This document shows positions 3,001 to 17,556 of a stretch of 64,000 bases of DNA, piece after piece. Under the pieces are notes generated by a model. That model saw only the letters and a program-made list of their open reading frames with translations, ran no database searches and was not told the origin of the DNA. Origin of the DNA: a bacterium (GTDB lineage: Bacteria; Patescibacteriota; Dojkabacteria; SC72); NCBI GenBank assembly GCA_021463465.1, contig JAJTYH010000002.1:137799-201798 (forward strand), written 5' to 3'. The position numbers were made by a program, and so were the translations under genes. Position 1 is the stretch's first letter; each line of letters opens with the position of its first letter.

Positions 3001-4506
3001 CCTAATTCAGCTACTACCCTTGCTATAAGAGCCAAGGAATCTGGAAGCGATCAAGTCACACAAGCGAATGGTGTATTCGCGTTGCGCTTAAACTTATTTG
3101 AAAATTATTTGGCACATGAAAATACAACTGGTACGGTTATGACTTCCTCAGGTAGCTGGGTAAACCAGCAATCAGTCAAGGTCGTTAATTCATTTAACAA
3201 CTCTGAATGGGTAGTTGCAGCAGGTGCGAATGTGACAGATGCTGATGCACGAGTAATAGCACGAATCCAAAACGGTGGAGTCAGTATTACAGACGATATG
3301 GGTGGGTGGAATAACGGAAGCGGGGATCTAATGCCAATCTTTCTTACAGATTATATTTTAAACCTTTCAAACGGCATCAAAACTTACACATTTGATACTC
3401 AAACGACTCTTTCTGGAACAGCTCCAATCTCATACCCATGGTTAGTTGCTTTTAGCCGAGAGCTAGCTCCAAGTTATCCAGCAATGGATCTTCCTACCAA
3501 TAATAACCCCTCCGTAGCCTTAAGACCTCAATTAAGAACAACTGCAACTGACCAAGACAGTGATTATCTTAGATACAAAATCCAGATATGTACTAATGCG
3601 GCAATGACCTCCAGCTGCCAAACCTTTGACCAAACCTCGAGTCAAACTGGATGGACCGGACAAAATACCCAAGGTAATACTGCCTACACTTCTGGTACTC
3701 AAGCCATCTACACACTCACATCAGATCTTATAGCCGACACTACATATTACTGGAGAAGTTATGCTATTGACCCAGCAGGTACTAATTCATTCACTTCTGA
3801 AAACCCAACACCGTTTTCATTTACGGTAACTGCTGCACCTACTGCCCCTACAGATTTATGGACTGAAGGTTCTACAAACCCTACATCGGTTACAGATACA
3901 ACGCCAGAATTTTCAGCAATTCACAACGACCCTGAGAGTGATTCTTCTGCAAGCTATCAAATTCAAGTAAATACACACTCTGACTTTTCGGGAACTAGTA
4001 TGTGGGACTCTGGGAAACAGAGTATAACGGTTGCTAACGGTGCAAGATCATCTGATATTTCGTATGCGGGAAATGCTCTTGGCCTTACAGGTACAACCTA
4101 TTATTGGAGAATACGGTTTTGGGATACCAATGATTCAGTAGGCTCGTATTCATCAGTCGCACAATTCACCATGAGAGCCATGGAAGAAGCCAATGCATGT
4201 TATTTAGTAAAAACACCTAACAGCTCCTCGCTTACATTCCACTGGAGAGATAATACCTCTTTGGAAGACGGGTATAAGGTACAAAGAAATGTTGATGGAG
4301 GTGGATTTAGTGATTTAATAACTAAGGCAGCGAACTCTTCGTCGCATACTGACTCTACAATTACAATGAACCACACATATCAATACAGAGTAGCTCCAAC
4401 CAACGGTAGCGTTACAGGCACATACTGTACAAGTAGCATTGCAAGTCTCTTTCAAGGTAACTTACAAATAGGTGGAATCAGGATGGAAGGTATACAAATT
4501 TACTAA
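22..4506 (+). CDS. Large secreted/surface protein, 5'-truncated by the window edge; three concanavalin-A/LamG-like modules followed by fibronectin-III-like repeats; ends at TAA
   Basis: 1494-aa uninterrupted ORF. Recurrent LamG-like signature (GKARxFNGS...WxHxVGTxDGTTxRxYxDG). Two ~94-aa near-identical modules (LRPxLRTTATDxxSxYLRYKIxxC...TYYWxxYAIDP). Thr/Ser-rich extracellular composition. Confidence 0.55.
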   Translation: MANGIAGKARSFNGSSDLIDVGDGTTLDASSTMTLSVWIKHTGSWPTNEGIIGKRIGTTEYAQYSLGVSSGSLYWLQSSTGTTWQTLVSTTSLPSPDQWHHIVGTNDGTVARLYIDGVEVGSADGSPATSLAASTESLKIGQTRISGANDYFTGQIDEVALYNIAKNSEEIAEMFRQGRDTFIRKSFSSNDITGTLMIPFQIAGDRPGTYIQTSLSESPYINSEADLNTVGEWGLDEISGTGAYIKDTSGNTNHGTPNNTISTQGIYGKARIFNGSNSYVGIPNNSVLSPTNNITVEAWVKTTSTGSNQVILGKSTGCITSGYLLWINQNNLTPGRPNFIVGNTTWLDSNVAVNDGNWHYVVGTYDGTTARIYVDGQLSNSGARSATLSSTTQLQIGGSTTGGGCSGVWFNGSIDEVRVSNVTRSAAEIRQAYEAVLTSHQITIQFGARLSTDDLVTNSSDLGFEIDATYYGLPQQATSLYKGDKIILRENYNGIEYYAQGTVTSVNTSTGSVTVTSWDTGSTFPSGGYSGNADVFKWQREYWTVKNETLSSAWDSLTGVSFRLTDGSEARTVWIDDYRVNSNYMTTPGGSTITSSLGSRYFQYRAILSSWGDYVSPTVTSATLDYTTNTSPATPSLNSPSNAATGQLLRPVLRTTATDAESNYLRYKIELCRDFAMSAGCVTYDQTSSQTGWSGQNTQTSTAYTSGTQAVYTLQSDLLPSTTYYWKTYAIDPGGSNRWSLTQSTPNHFLTNSKPRSTASRALTIYSSRRTSEAVSTTNGWANISGSVDTGTTGSSNGWVSSSNLNGGRRYLIYATGSHSTDNTSGKSGLRVVHGTTTFETSESVDVTDNTTAGYKIPYFWFTVWTAVTGESLEVQQYWNGTGAQSRVEDITLMVIDVDDLITSGDFQYAINTTYTSLTTTLSNVLTHTFTPANNNDIWWVAGYTQTSANNGGAGSKIENQLTVNSTTYSNNNVTINANSLSPILPLGGTLALPNSATTLAIRAKESGSDQVTQANGVFALRLNLFENYLAHENTTGTVMTSSGSWVNQQSVKVVNSFNNSEWVVAAGANVTDADARVIARIQNGGVSITDDMGGWNNGSGDLMPIFLTDYILNLSNGIKTYTFDTQTTLSGTAPISYPWLVAFSRELAPSYPAMDLPTNNNPSVALRPQLRTTATDQDSDYLRYKIQICTNAAMTSSCQTFDQTSSQTGWTGQNTQGNTAYTSGTQAIYTLTSDLIADTTYYWRSYAIDPAGTNSFTSENPTPFSFTVTAAPTAPTDLWTEGSTNPTSVTDTTPEFSAIHNDPESDSSASYQIQVNTHSDFSGTSMWDSGKQSITVANGARSSDISYAGNALGLTGTTYYWRIRFWDTNDSVGSYSSVAQFTMRAMEEANACYLVKTPNSSSLTFHWRDNTSLEDGYKVQRNVDGGGFSDLITKAANSSSHTDSTITMNHTYQYRVAPTNGSVTGTYCTSSIASLFQGNLQIGGIRMEGIQIY
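1966..2247 (+). repeat. Internal protein-coding repeat copy 1 (~282 nt module) within the giant surface protein
   Basis: Copy encodes LRPVLRTTATDAESNYLRYKIELC...YYWKTYAIDPGGSNRWS, about 60% identical to copy 2 at the aa level. Confidence 0.5.
3521..3802 (+). repeat. Internal protein-coding repeat copy 2 within the giant surface protein
   Basis: Copy encodes LRPQLRTTATDQDSDYLRYKIQIC...YYWRSYAIDPAGTNSFTS. Confidence 0.5.
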
Positions 4507-15620: not shown

Positions 15621-16088
15621 TCAAACATCTAACCTTTCACCAACCTCGATCTCAGAGGGATCAAACATCAAAGGAAGCTTTTCCCTCAAAGTTGGAAATG
15701 TTTCGCAGCACTCTATTAAATGTTGCAAGACTCGCTCCTTTTCTGAAGGATTAACACCTTTTATTATGGCAAACTGCTCCGCTAAATGTTCACCAAACTC
15801 TTTTGCAGTTTCAGAATCTAAGATAGTGTTCTGATCCTGAACAATTATAACTTGAGGACCAGAATATATCTCATATTTTTCAAAAATAAGACCATTATTT
15901 ACGGTACATACAATTTCATTTTCATCGAGAGAACTTAATATCCGAGTGAATTCACAAGTCCATTTATCAAAACGAAAGTTAGCTCTATTTACTCGGCAAA
16001 GATGAACTCCTTTTCTTCCAAACATTATACCTTTAACGAGTACTAACGAATCTACGGGGGTATTTAAAACTGGTAATGTGACTGCCAT
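15621..16088 (-). CDS. Hypothetical protein
   Basis: ORF only; no recognizable motif. Confidence 0.35.
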   Translation of the reverse strand: MAVTLPVLNTPVDSLVLVKGIMFGRKGVHLCRVNRANFRFDKWTCEFTRILSSLDENEIVCTVNNGLIFEKYEIYSGPQVIIVQDQNTILDSETAKEFGEHLAEQFAIIKGVNPSEKERVLQHLIECCETFPTLREKLPLMFDPSEIEVGERLDV

Positions 16089-16121
16089 TGCGTAAGAAAA
16101 ACACTGGTTTAATCAATGATT

Positions 16122-16151
16122 ATAACATTTTTTGGGAATCTCTGATATAAT
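16122..16151 (+). promoter_or_regulatory. Candidate sigma70-type promoter with extended -10 (TGATATAAT), weak -35 (ATAACA), 18-nt spacer, facing hisS
   Basis: Sequence ATAACA-N18-TATAAT with TG at -15/-14; sits in the divergent intergenic region. Confidence 0.35.
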
Positions 16152-16160
16152 CAATCTATT

Positions 16161-16208
16161 ATGAGAAAAACATATATGACAGCATTGCATCATCACATGG
16201 GACACTGA
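16161..16208 (+). promoter_or_regulatory. His-codon-rich leader mini-ORF (MRKTYMTALHHHMGH* or MTALHHHMGH* from 16176) in the hisS 5' leader
   Basis: ATG AGA AAA ACA TAT ATG ACA GCA TTG CAT CAT CAC ATG GGA CAC TGA. Three consecutive plus one more His codons, just downstream of the promoter and upstream of a terminator hairpin. Confidence 0.45.
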
Positions 16209-16235
16209 GTCGTCTTGTGTTTTGACATATATACA

Positions 16236-16258
16236 AGCCGGCGAAAGCCGGTTTTTTA
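16236..16258 (+). terminator. Intrinsic terminator/attenuator hairpin (GCCGGC-GAAA-GCCGGT + T6) 24 nt upstream of the hisS ATG
   Basis: 6-7 bp GC stem, GAAA tetraloop and TTTTTT run on the + strand. It lies inside the hisS leader, not at the end of a + strand gene. Confidence 0.55.
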
Positions 16259-16281
16259 TTTAATTTTGATATACTGAAAAA

Positions 16282-17556
16282 ATGAAAACATACAAATTAA
16301 CAACTCAACCGTATAAAGGTACTAACGATTACTATCCAAAGGATATGTATAAGCGCAATATACTATTTGATATCTGGAAAGAAACCGCTATTGAATTCGG
16401 TTATGAAGAGTATGACACACCACTGCTCGAAGAAGCTGATCTTTACCGGGCTAAGTCTGGAGAAGAGTTAGCGAATACACAGCTTTACAATTTCACGGAT
16501 AAAGGTGGAAGAGAAGTCGCAATCAGACCTGAGATGACTCCATCACTAGCTCGCATGGTCGCAGCCAGAATAAACGAGCTTCCTAAACCAATCCGTTGGT
16601 TTAACATTGGTAAATATTATCGCTATGAAAAGCCTCAGAGAGGGCGTACCAGAGAATTTTTCCAATTAAATATCGACATATTAGGACTCGAGACTATCAA
16701 TGCTGAGGTGGAAATCTTCCAATTTATTAATCGCGTAATGGAGAAGCTTAAAGCCCCTAAAGAATCCTGGTGTATCTACATGAACAACAGGTATCTTATG
16801 GACTATTTTTTTAACGAAGTGCTCAATGTATCAGATGATTTAAAACCAAAGCTTTCCAGAGCAATTGATAATTACACGAAACTAGAAGCAAAAGACTTCA
16901 AAGAATACTTAAAAGATTTTGGAATGGATAAAAAACAGGTGGATTCACTCTTAAAGTTCTTAAAATCAACTTCTTCGGATTTAGCTCAATTGGCTAAAGT
17001 AAACAAAGGCGCTAAAGACTTGTCTGAAATCTTAGCCAAGTGTGATGCATTAGGAATAACCAATGTACAGTTCAAACCATATATCATGAGAGGAATAGCA
17101 TATTATACTGGTACCGTAATAGAGCTATTTGATGTTGGTAGTAAAGATAATCCAAGAGCACTTTTTGGAGGAGGACGATATGATGATTTGCTCACAATCT
17201 TTAATAAACCGACAATTCCAGCCTTTGGACTAGGATGGGGCAACATAACCACTGAAAACTTCATAGAAACCTACAATCTATTCCCAACGTACAAAAGTTC
17301 TACGCAAGTTTATGTTACTCTAGGAGATATAGGACAGTTAGAAGGATCGAGTTTAGTTGCTTTGGCATTAAGAAAAAGAGGGGTCAAAGTTGAACAGCAA
17401 TTAAAAGTATCAAATCTTGCAAGGCAAATCGAATATGCCAGTAAAAAAGGCATTCCCTATGTTCTTTTTGTAAATGATGCACAAATTGAAATAAAAAATC
17501 TGGAGAAAGGAACCCAAAAGCGTGTAAGTATTGATGAAATAGTAAAAATTGTGTAA
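16282..17556 (+). CDS. hisS: Histidyl-tRNA synthetase
   Basis: Class II motifs: AIRPEMTPSLARMVAAR, FQLNIDILG, GGGRYDDL. Confidence 0.9.
   Translation: MKTYKLTTQPYKGTNDYYPKDMYKRNILFDIWKETAIEFGYEEYDTPLLEEADLYRAKSGEELANTQLYNFTDKGGREVAIRPEMTPSLARMVAARINELPKPIRWFNIGKYYRYEKPQRGRTREFFQLNIDILGLETINAEVEIFQFINRVMEKLKAPKESWCIYMNNRYLMDYFFNEVLNVSDDLKPKLSRAIDNYTKLEAKDFKEYLKDFGMDKKQVDSLLKFLKSTSSDLAQLAKVNKGAKDLSEILAKCDALGITNVQFKPYIMRGIAYYTGTVIELFDVGSKDNPRALFGGGRYDDLLTIFNKPTIPAFGLGWGNITTENFIETYNLFPTYKSSTQVYVTLGDIGQLEGSSLVALALRKRGVKVEQQLKVSNLARQIEYASKKGIPYVLFVNDAQIEIKNLEKGTQKRVSIDEIVKIV

Follow-up and report, generated by a model that had tools for sequence, protein, structure and literature searches.

The his leader of Escherichia coli and Salmonella (hisL) combines a short open reading frame (ORF) with clustered histidine codons and a set of alternative anti-antiterminator, antiterminator and terminator structures, between which the position of the ribosome decides; the signal is the supply of charged tRNA-His. 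In enterobacteria, this leader contains seven His codons in a row. Synthetase genes can be controlled in the same manner, as in the E. coli pheST operon, which stands under a leader peptide rich in cognate codons (PheM) and a terminator. Classical attenuators have also been predicted for trpS and leuS of Streptomyces (Seliverstov et al., 2005, PMC1262725), and comparative genomics alone predicted a His leader peptide with a premature terminator for a hisS paralog (hisS*) and hisZ of Bacillus (Naville and Gautheret, 2010, PMC2965389). Here we describe a candidate His-codon attenuator in front of the gene for histidyl-tRNA synthetase (hisS) in a bacterium of the Candidatus Dojkabacteria. The element lies at positions 16122–16281 of a stretch of 64,000 nucleotides (contig JAJTYH010000002.1 of assembly GCA_021463465.1), which was analysed as a whole and is called the window below.

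A first-pass annotation, made from the letters of the window alone, had recognised the layout of ribosome-mediated attenuation at this site. Comparison across 12 lineages, covariation of the antiterminator helix (regions 2 and 3, see below) and folding with a masked ribosome support this assignment, and we consider it likely that the element attenuates transcription by means of a leader peptide, according to the supply of charged tRNA-His. It shares with hisL the short ORF with clustered His codons and the alternative antiterminator and terminator structures, and an anti-antiterminator is predicted as well; the position of the ribosome and the charging of tRNA-His would likewise be the deciding factor and the signal. 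It differs from hisL in the number of His codons (two to five per lineage), in an apparently leaderless message free of a Shine-Dalgarno (SD) sequence, in its target, which is the synthetase and/or tRNA-His and not histidine biosynthesis, and in its host, which belongs to the Patescibacteria (Candidate Phyla Radiation, CPR).

Searches with Rfam models agree with this distinction. At E ≤ 10 the leader (16000–16400) gave chance-level matches only, with no T-box, no His_leader (RF00514) and no other family. In the whole window the sole match was a tRNA-Val, with neither T-box nor His_leader at gathering score, and neither the T-box (RF00230) nor His_leader was found at gathering score in 10 related loci. 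The earlier statement that a T-box consensus is missing was thereby borne out. With the T-box of Firmicutes hisS the element would have the gene, the signal (charging of tRNA-His) and the output (terminator versus antiterminator) in common; unlike it, the T-box binds the tRNA directly and needs no ribosome, and the leader described here is far shorter. Compared with pheST, attenuation of a synthetase gene is the common feature, whereas the amino acid sensed is another one and a promoter-like box lies directly before hisS of the window. The Bacillus hisS*/hisZ leader, compared by its published description, also places a His-codon peptide and a terminator before a hisS-family gene; however, in these Firmicutes the targets are a paralog and the regulatory subunit HisZ, the canonical hisS using a T-box, whereas here an apparently canonical hisS and tRNA-His are concerned. 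The Streptomyces trpS and leuS cases represent leader-peptide attenuation of synthetase genes outside Proteobacteria as well, but for other amino acids, in another phylum and without a tRNA gene. In view of the pheST, Streptomyces and Bacillus precedents, the first-pass annotation overstated its case in calling an attenuator on a synthetase gene unusual.

In the window, the components of the leader were found in the expected order on the forward strand. A consensus scan (10 of 12 matches) placed the leader promoter at 16122–16151, with a −35-like ATAACA (16122–16127), an 18-nt spacer and the extended −10 box TGATATAAT (TG plus TATAAT, 16143–16151) that had been noted at first reading. Transcription is predicted to start at about A16158; the 5′ untranslated region would then comprise 3 nt and the transcript would be nearly leaderless. 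The leader-peptide ORF (16161–16208) has 15 codons followed by TGA (16206–16208) and encodes MRKTYMTALHHHMGH. The His codons of the mini-ORF described before, CAT-CAT-CAC and one further CAC, are present at 16188–16196 and 16203–16205, respectively; an in-frame internal start at ATG16176 gives the 10-codon version MTALHHHMGH, which extends in frame to ATG16161. The 15-codon ORF is the likelier translated version.

The intrinsic terminator (AAGCCGGC-GAAA-GCCGGUUU, 16235–16254, followed by six U up to 16257; forward strand) has a stem of eight pairs, five of them G-C, with a free energy of −13.2 kcal/mol. It ends 24 nt upstream of the hisS ATG at 16282, as had been stated. Terminator action on the minus strand was rejected, as that strand has no U-run at the hairpin and no gene running into it.

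From the ORF to the terminator, four segments can form alternative helices; all are on the forward strand. Region 1 (ACAUGGGAC, 16195–16203) follows directly on the His run and forms the 1:2 hairpin with 16212–16220 (−8.7 kcal/mol). Region 2 (GUCGUCUUGUGU, 16209–16220) starts directly after the stop codon and can pair either with region 1 or with region 3 (AUACAAGCCGGC, 16231–16242). Region 3 is the 3′ strand of the antiterminator, which has −10.2 kcal/mol in constrained folds and contains a 1 × 1 mismatch, unlike the 7-nt bulge of a T-box; it overlaps the 5′ arm of the terminator at 16235–16242. Region 4 is the 3′ arm of the terminator, so that regions 3:4 represent the terminator itself. In the minimum free energy (MFE) structures, the segment S1 (AUAUAUG, 16172–16178) in the 5′ part of the ORF pairs with S3 (16226–16232), and this pairing forms the outer part of the anti-antiterminator hairpin.

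Taken by itself, the window sequence is only suggestive of an attenuator. Four of its 385 small ORFs of 10–25 codons have at least four His codons, and the leader upstream of the terminator folded no better than shuffled sequence in a single-sequence test (z = 0.02). This fold is uninformative, and both the credibility of the antiterminator and the claim that the pattern goes beyond chance come from the comparison with relatives.

For this comparison, related hisS loci were fetched and the DNA upstream of hisS was read (loci are given by L numbers). The attenuator unit was present in 12 lineages, i.e. the window and 11 further ones (L030/L031, L032, L033/L034, L035, L036, L037, L039, L040, L041, L001 and L043), which form one clade on a neighbour-joining tree of HisS. 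Conservation of the mini-ORF, proposed at first reading as a check, was thus found: a His-codon ORF precedes hisS or tRNA-His in 12 Dojkabacteria lineages. The unit was not found in relatives with 53–58% HisS identity (L002–L025), nor did a covariance model derived from the alignment detect it there. At these loci hisS and the PBP gene diverge, and hisS is preceded by no leader but only by a promoter of the form TGTGATATAAT-N6-ATG. The His-codon unit is therefore clade-specific as far as these sequences go. The covariance model gave a single copy in the 64-kb window, and a pattern scan of viral contigs for further copies gave two chance matches, both within GC-rich phage coding sequence. At one more locus, L042, the terminator is present and the contig ends just upstream of it. 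Positions 1–35 of L042 are Illumina adapter sequence (CTACACTCTTTCCCTACACGACGCTCTTCCGATCT), an assembly artefact that cuts off the leader.

Apart from their histidine content, the leader peptides diverge. Ten further lineages have a His-rich ORF of 13–22 codons at the equivalent position, and one more (L043) has a His tail attached to a longer gene. The products are MKTTYITIHNHFHRH in L030 and L032, MKINIKNISVHHNKTN in L033, MNNTNQIKLNLHHNKTHSAVL in L035, MTNIINKNLNHHNKTDITVL in L036, MKKINMTHHHHRH in L037, MKITIQKSHQIHHKL in L039, MNNYSETKLIPHHHKTYSAVL in L040, MKNKIKNNLTHHHKTHSAVL in L041 and MELKNTYKSVNHHNKTTVLVVL in L001. Among 10 independent mini-ORFs, 32 of 178 codons (18%) specify His compared with 1.4% in the large ORFs of the window; the nominal binomial P of about 1e-25 overstates independence, as the lineages are related. 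The positions of the His codons shift, CAU and CAC replace each other and the other residues diverge, which is the pattern expected for regulatory codons and not for a conserved peptide. In most lineages the leader ATG follows a TGnTATAAT or TATAAT box by 6–9 nt; L035 and L041 lack a clear −10 box beside it. We also considered that the mini-ORF might be a duplicated hisS 5′ end with its promoter, based on MRKTY in the leader and MKTY in HisS. This idea was dropped because the leader peptides of the relatives are unlike their own HisS N-termini, and the resemblance probably reflects A-rich codons.

The −10-to-ATG geometry of the leader recurs at real genes and SD sequences are rare, which argues for leaderless messages and for reading of the leader ORF from ATG16161. 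In the window, an SD sequence was seen at 3 of 53 long ORFs. Extended −10 boxes stand 6–9 nt upstream of the ATG at operon-first genes, namely those for PBP, MutS and a 153-aa protein and hisS; examples are 14857–14849, 20899–20891 and 35856–35848 (all minus strand) and 16267–16275 (plus strand). Of the eight strict TGNTATAMT motifs in the window, five are followed 6–9 nt later by the ATG of an ORF. Leaderless mRNAs thus seem to be in common use in this Dojkabacteria genome and are possibly the norm.

Evidence for a regulatory RNA also came from covariation. Regions 1, 2, 3 and 4 recur in every unit-bearing lineage. Near the end of the ORF, at the stop codon or immediately behind it, a conserved segment (CCGUCUUG) is complementary to the terminator's 5′ arm (CAAGCCGG), and changes in one strand are compensated in the other. 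The core of region 2 is CGUCUUG, and region 3 reads (A/U)CAAGCCGG across the lineages. On the MAFFT alignment A1, 93% of the cells of the 2:3 helix were paired and 5 of its 11 pairs had changed on both sides; none of 500 shuffles reached this value, and slid controls gave 26–41%. Unprompted, the RNAalifold consensus was exactly the 2:3 helix. The alternative antiterminator pairing that the first-pass annotation had proposed to look for was thus found, between 16209–16220 and 16231–16242 in the window. A joint change of three strands is seen in L043 (CUGG/CCAG/UGGC), where region 2 is CUGGUUUG, region 3 UAAGCCAG and region 4 UGGCUUA. The terminator is present in all relatives; its closing pairs covary (C-G versus U-A), and in L043 the stem is rebuilt.

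Region 2 follows the stop codon in the window, L030/L032, L033, L037 and L039, whereas in L035, L036, L040, L041, L001 and L043 it is translated, as ...AVL*, ...TVL*, ...VVL* or ...AGL*. Since its nucleotides are kept both untranslated and translated, the constraint acts on the RNA and not on the peptide. The inverted repeat of regions 2 and 3 was also considered as a DNA operator; this was rejected because the spacing of the arms varies roughly from 10 to 30 nt between lineages, which fits an RNA hairpin and not an operator with fixed spacing.

For the anti-antiterminator, the 1:2 hairpin was predicted in 11 of the 12 lineages (−4.7 to −14.4 kcal/mol) and is part of the MFE structure of most; a homologous ACAAGAC:GUCUUGU hairpin occurs in L033, L035, L036, L040, L041 and L001. 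S1:S3 duplexes were more stable within lineages (mean −6.9 kcal/mol) than between lineages (−4.6 kcal/mol; permutation p = 5e-4). The spacing is conserved as well. The first His codon lies 20–28 nt from region 2, most often 21 nt (six lineages), and the stop codon either begins 2–7 nt upstream of region 2 or immediately follows the conserved core of that region.

To model the positions of the ribosome, the RNA of the 12 lineages was masked up to 12 nt past the A-site codon (assumed footprint) and the remainder was folded. With the first His codon in the A site, nascent RNA ending at the 5′ arm of the terminator folded into the 2:3 antiterminator in all 12 lineages (−8.1 to −17.2 kcal/mol; window −10.2 kcal/mol). 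With the stop codon in the A site, the antiterminator was impossible in all 12 and the terminator was the sole structure. For the full-length leader, a stall at His flipped the MFE structure to the antiterminator in 8 of 12 lineages, and L036 showed a partial flip.

Conservation, codon bias, alternative helices, covariation and spacing were obtained by computation; the transcription start sites, translation of the ORF, coupling of ribosome and polymerase and any response to histidine are inferred. Transcription from the extended −10 promoter, a few bases before ATG16161, would produce a leaderless or nearly leaderless mini-mRNA, and its 15-codon ORF would be translated by a ribosome close behind RNA polymerase. 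When His-tRNA-His is plentiful, the ribosome would reach the stop codon (16206–16208) and cover region 2; regions 3 and 4 would then pair and the terminator would release the transcript. When it is scarce, the ribosome would stall with a CAU or CAC codon (16188–16196) in the A site, covering region 1 and leaving region 2, 21 nt downstream, free. Region 2 would pair with the emerging region 3, no terminator would form and the polymerase would continue. In the ribosome-free state, the extended hairpin (S1:S3 plus 1:2) would compete for region 2.

In eight lineages, the window included, hisS directly follows the terminator. In the remaining four (L033/L034, L036, L001 and L043) the next gene is that for tRNA-His(GUG). 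In L033/L034 and L036 this gene starts 13–14 nt after the U-run and is followed by hisS; in L001 and L043 hisS is located further on. A promoter scan of L033 and L036 found only the leader promoter upstream of tRNA-His and no promoter-like site after the terminator, so that tRNA-His apparently depends on read-through of the attenuator in these lineages. The −10-like hexamers seen by eye beside tRNA-His in L033 and L036 would start transcription inside the acceptor stem. The tRNA-linked arrangements are found in three subclades of the HisS tree, which suggests, without proving it, that attenuator–tRNA-His–hisS is the older gene order. In every arrangement there is a functional link to histidine decoding.

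For hisS itself a second promoter has to be considered. In the window, a promoter-like box (TGATATACT, 16267–16275, forward strand) lies 6 nt before the hisS ATG. A TGnTATACT box 6 nt (range 6–9) from the hisS ATG is present at 12 of the 13 hisS loci of the clade, L001 being without a clear box, and it is kept where a tRNA gene intervenes and in L043, where a peptidase gene and no attenuator precedes hisS. Its geometry is the same as at the MutS, PBP and 153-aa genes, and distant relatives have TATAAT at the same spacing. Probably, the box gives rise to a leaderless hisS mRNA, and very probably some hisS transcripts start downstream of the hairpin. Such transcripts had been named in the first-pass annotation as an argument against attenuation. 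For hisS, this argument probably holds in part, given the conserved TGnTATACT box, but transcription from this box would not be the sole control. Internal promoters inside attenuated operons are known, for example in the E. coli trp operon. Thus, hisS of the window, with its proximal box, would not depend on read-through as tRNA-His of L033 and L036 apparently does, and the attenuator is probably an additional, inducible input to hisS. In the window, read-through into hisS would add to the transcripts from the proximal leaderless promoter, whereas in the tRNA-linked relatives it would lead first into the apparently promoterless tRNA-His(GUG) gene and then into hisS.

These arrangements allow a more specific reading, which we put forward tentatively and regard as possible but as somewhat less probable than its negation. 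The element would primarily be a feedback controller of the tRNA-His gene, in which a ribosome on the His codons of the leaderless mini-mRNA gates tRNA-His(GUG) and then hisS. In the lineage of the window the tRNA gene would have moved away, leaving the switch as a second, inducible input to hisS. Such control of a tRNA gene by ribosomes on its own codons would be an unusual kind of feedback. A possible parallel, E. coli tRNA-Phe genes behind a Phe leader peptide, was discarded, as the upstream region of K-12 pheV has only a promoter. In our literature search, no earlier example of a tRNA gene placed downstream of a leader-peptide attenuator came up, nor did a report of this kind of attenuation in the Candidate Phyla Radiation or a relevant one on leaderless mRNAs of Patescibacteria. 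If the element is a controller of tRNA-His, this would be the first tRNA gene, as far as we found, under leader-peptide attenuation on its own codons.

For an attenuator in general, the mechanism is a familiar one in a phylum for which it has not been described so far, acting on an apparently leaderless message and aimed at a tRNA and its synthetase, not at biosynthesis. If the reading is correct, the switch is the first of its kind described in Patescibacteria, as far as we found. These bacteria have very small genomes with few recognisable regulators, and to our knowledge their gene regulation is almost unstudied. A conserved attenuator would show that transcription–translation coupling and codon-specific stalling are used as a sensor in the CPR. 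Sensing would take place on apparently leaderless, SD-free messages, which bears on their co-transcriptional translation. What the switch would increase is the charging enzyme, together with the tRNA itself in some lineages, and not the enzymes of histidine biosynthesis. CPR organisms are generally thought to rely on scavenged amino acids, which fits such a target.

Several observations weigh against leader-peptide attenuation or limit its extent. Because all 12 related lineages were found via hisS, ascertainment accounts in part for the link to hisS, but neither for the link to tRNA-His nor for the conservation across the clade. The promoters are consensus matches only. As hisS has its proximal promoter-like box, the regulatory effect on this gene might be of any size. 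On A1, where the alignment has register problems, 69% of the cells of the 1:2 hairpin are paired and its covariation is weak; L039 has no such hairpin. The window, L037 and L039 keep the terminator as the MFE structure of the full-length leader despite a stalled ribosome, so that a switch there would have to be kinetic, with 2:3 forming ahead of the synthesis of region 4. The terminator of the E. coli trp attenuator is likewise more stable than its antiterminator. Furthermore, the nascent RNA of seven lineages, the window among them, has the antiterminator as its MFE structure even without a ribosome, so that the state without translation is less well defined than in the trp model. Formation of 1:2 and S1:S3 during transcription might prevent this ribosome-free antiterminator or might fail to do so. 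Finally, an extra His codon lies 5–7 nt 5′ of region 2 in six lineages (the window, at 16203–16205, L030/L032, L035, L037 and L041). According to the footprint model, a ribosome stalled at this codon would cover region 2, block the antiterminator and favour termination.

The best surviving alternative is a small gene in its own right, complete with promoter and terminator, whose product would be a small RNA of about 100 nt or a His-rich micropeptide such as a metal binder, while hisS is transcribed only from its proximal promoter. Promoter and terminator do bracket a unit of about 100 nt, hisS does have a conserved promoter-like box after the terminator, and His-rich peptides could bind metals. 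However, the peptide is not conserved apart from its His codons. The best-conserved nucleotides, those of regions 2 and 3, are outside the ORF in five lineages and part of it in the others, and the 2:3 helix both competes and covaries with the terminator. Moreover, the unit has remained next to tRNA-His or hisS despite several rearrangements, and in L033 and L036 the essential tRNA-His follows the terminator without a promoter-like site, which implies that read-through must occur and matter. We therefore regard a small gene as an unlikely explanation.

We give slightly less weight still to hairpins that are switched by a trans-acting factor, be it an RNA-binding protein similar to HutP or TRAP or, in the manner of a miniature T-box, uncharged tRNA-His; the His codons would then act as specifier or be incidental. 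Indeed, the CAU and CAC codons of the leader are complementary to the GUG anticodon, and the rarity of SD sequences means that translation of the mini-ORF is not assured. In L043, a gene for a 105-aa protein of the TrpR family (positions 1156–1473, PF01371 at residues 10–92) is physically fused to the element. TrpR-family proteins bind DNA, which speaks against a direct action of this protein on the hairpins; its family also includes the HisR regulators of histidine genes in Firmicutes (PMC9413887). Against tRNA binding, there is no T-box match even at E ≤ 10, the leader has only about 100 nt, and the antiterminator with its 1 × 1 mismatch has no UGGN bulge for the 3′ end of a tRNA. Furthermore, an ATG in frame with the His codons follows a −10 box by 6–9 nt in most lineages, as at real genes, and the stop codon always abuts region 2, a spacing that makes sense only if the frame is read by a ribosome. 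It is very improbable that the hairpin is just an insulator against, or a terminator of, stray transcription from upstream, with His ORF and complementary segments arising by chance in an AT-rich spacer: the window ORF is not exceptional and the fold upstream of the terminator is no better than shuffled sequence, but ORF, His codons, region 2 and spacing are kept in 12 lineages while flanking genes change, covariation is present, and the upstream genes are transcribed divergently, so that nothing upstream needs terminating here.

The fused gene of L043 ends in the C-terminal His tail LHHHKPKFAGL*. The His tail and region 2 make up the last 13 codons of the TrpR-family gene, and they are followed by the antiterminator/terminator and then by tRNA-His. 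In this lineage only, the arrangement resembles E. coli rph–pyrE, where the end of a full-length upstream gene is the leader; ribosomes finishing the gene would control the terminator. The pyrE attenuator senses the UTP-dependent speed of the polymerase and not codon-specific stalling.

The hisS gene of the window (16282–17556, forward strand) encodes a class II histidyl-tRNA synthetase of 424 aa with the Pfam domains tRNA-synt_His and HGTP_anticodon and the NCBI name histidine--tRNA ligase. Its best matches are all from Candidatus Dojkabacteria (WS6), within Patescibacteria/CPR. Several contigs encode the identical HisS protein, each with an identical leader, and the next-nearest relatives share only 60–66% identity with HisS of the window. 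The two genes upstream of the leader, for proteins of 155 and 242 aa without a Pfam domain, are on the opposite strand. The 155-aa gene (15621–16088, minus strand) fills the slot between the conserved 242-aa ORF and the hisS leader. The occupant of this slot changes with the lineage (278 aa in L030 and 157 aa in L032, on the other strand; 172 aa in L033), so that it looks like a variable insertion slot. A box TGTTATAAT (16127–16119, minus strand) lies about 30 nt before the ATG of the 155-aa gene and overlaps the −35 region of the leader promoter. Judged by their sequences, this box and the leader promoter would form back-to-back divergent promoters.

Two further features were seen in relatives, outside the window. 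In five of them a GC-rich, hairpin-rich stretch of 150–600 nt adjoins the His element or tRNA-His (L035 2258–2856, L040 2511–2858, L041 2417–2863, L001 2068–2215 and L043 1608–1805). It has a strong GAAAGGAGG box and long GGGAGG/CCUCCC hairpins, and L040 and L041 have in common a small hairpin followed by UUAGCAA.CCU.GA.AAGGAGG. The stretch matched no Rfam family and could be an unknown RNA or a small mobile element. In L030–L032, a DUF3800 gene is inserted between hisS and a response-regulator gene, and beside this gene L030 carries a DUF3800-IX RNA at 4303–4375 (Rfam RF02968, 50.5 bits).

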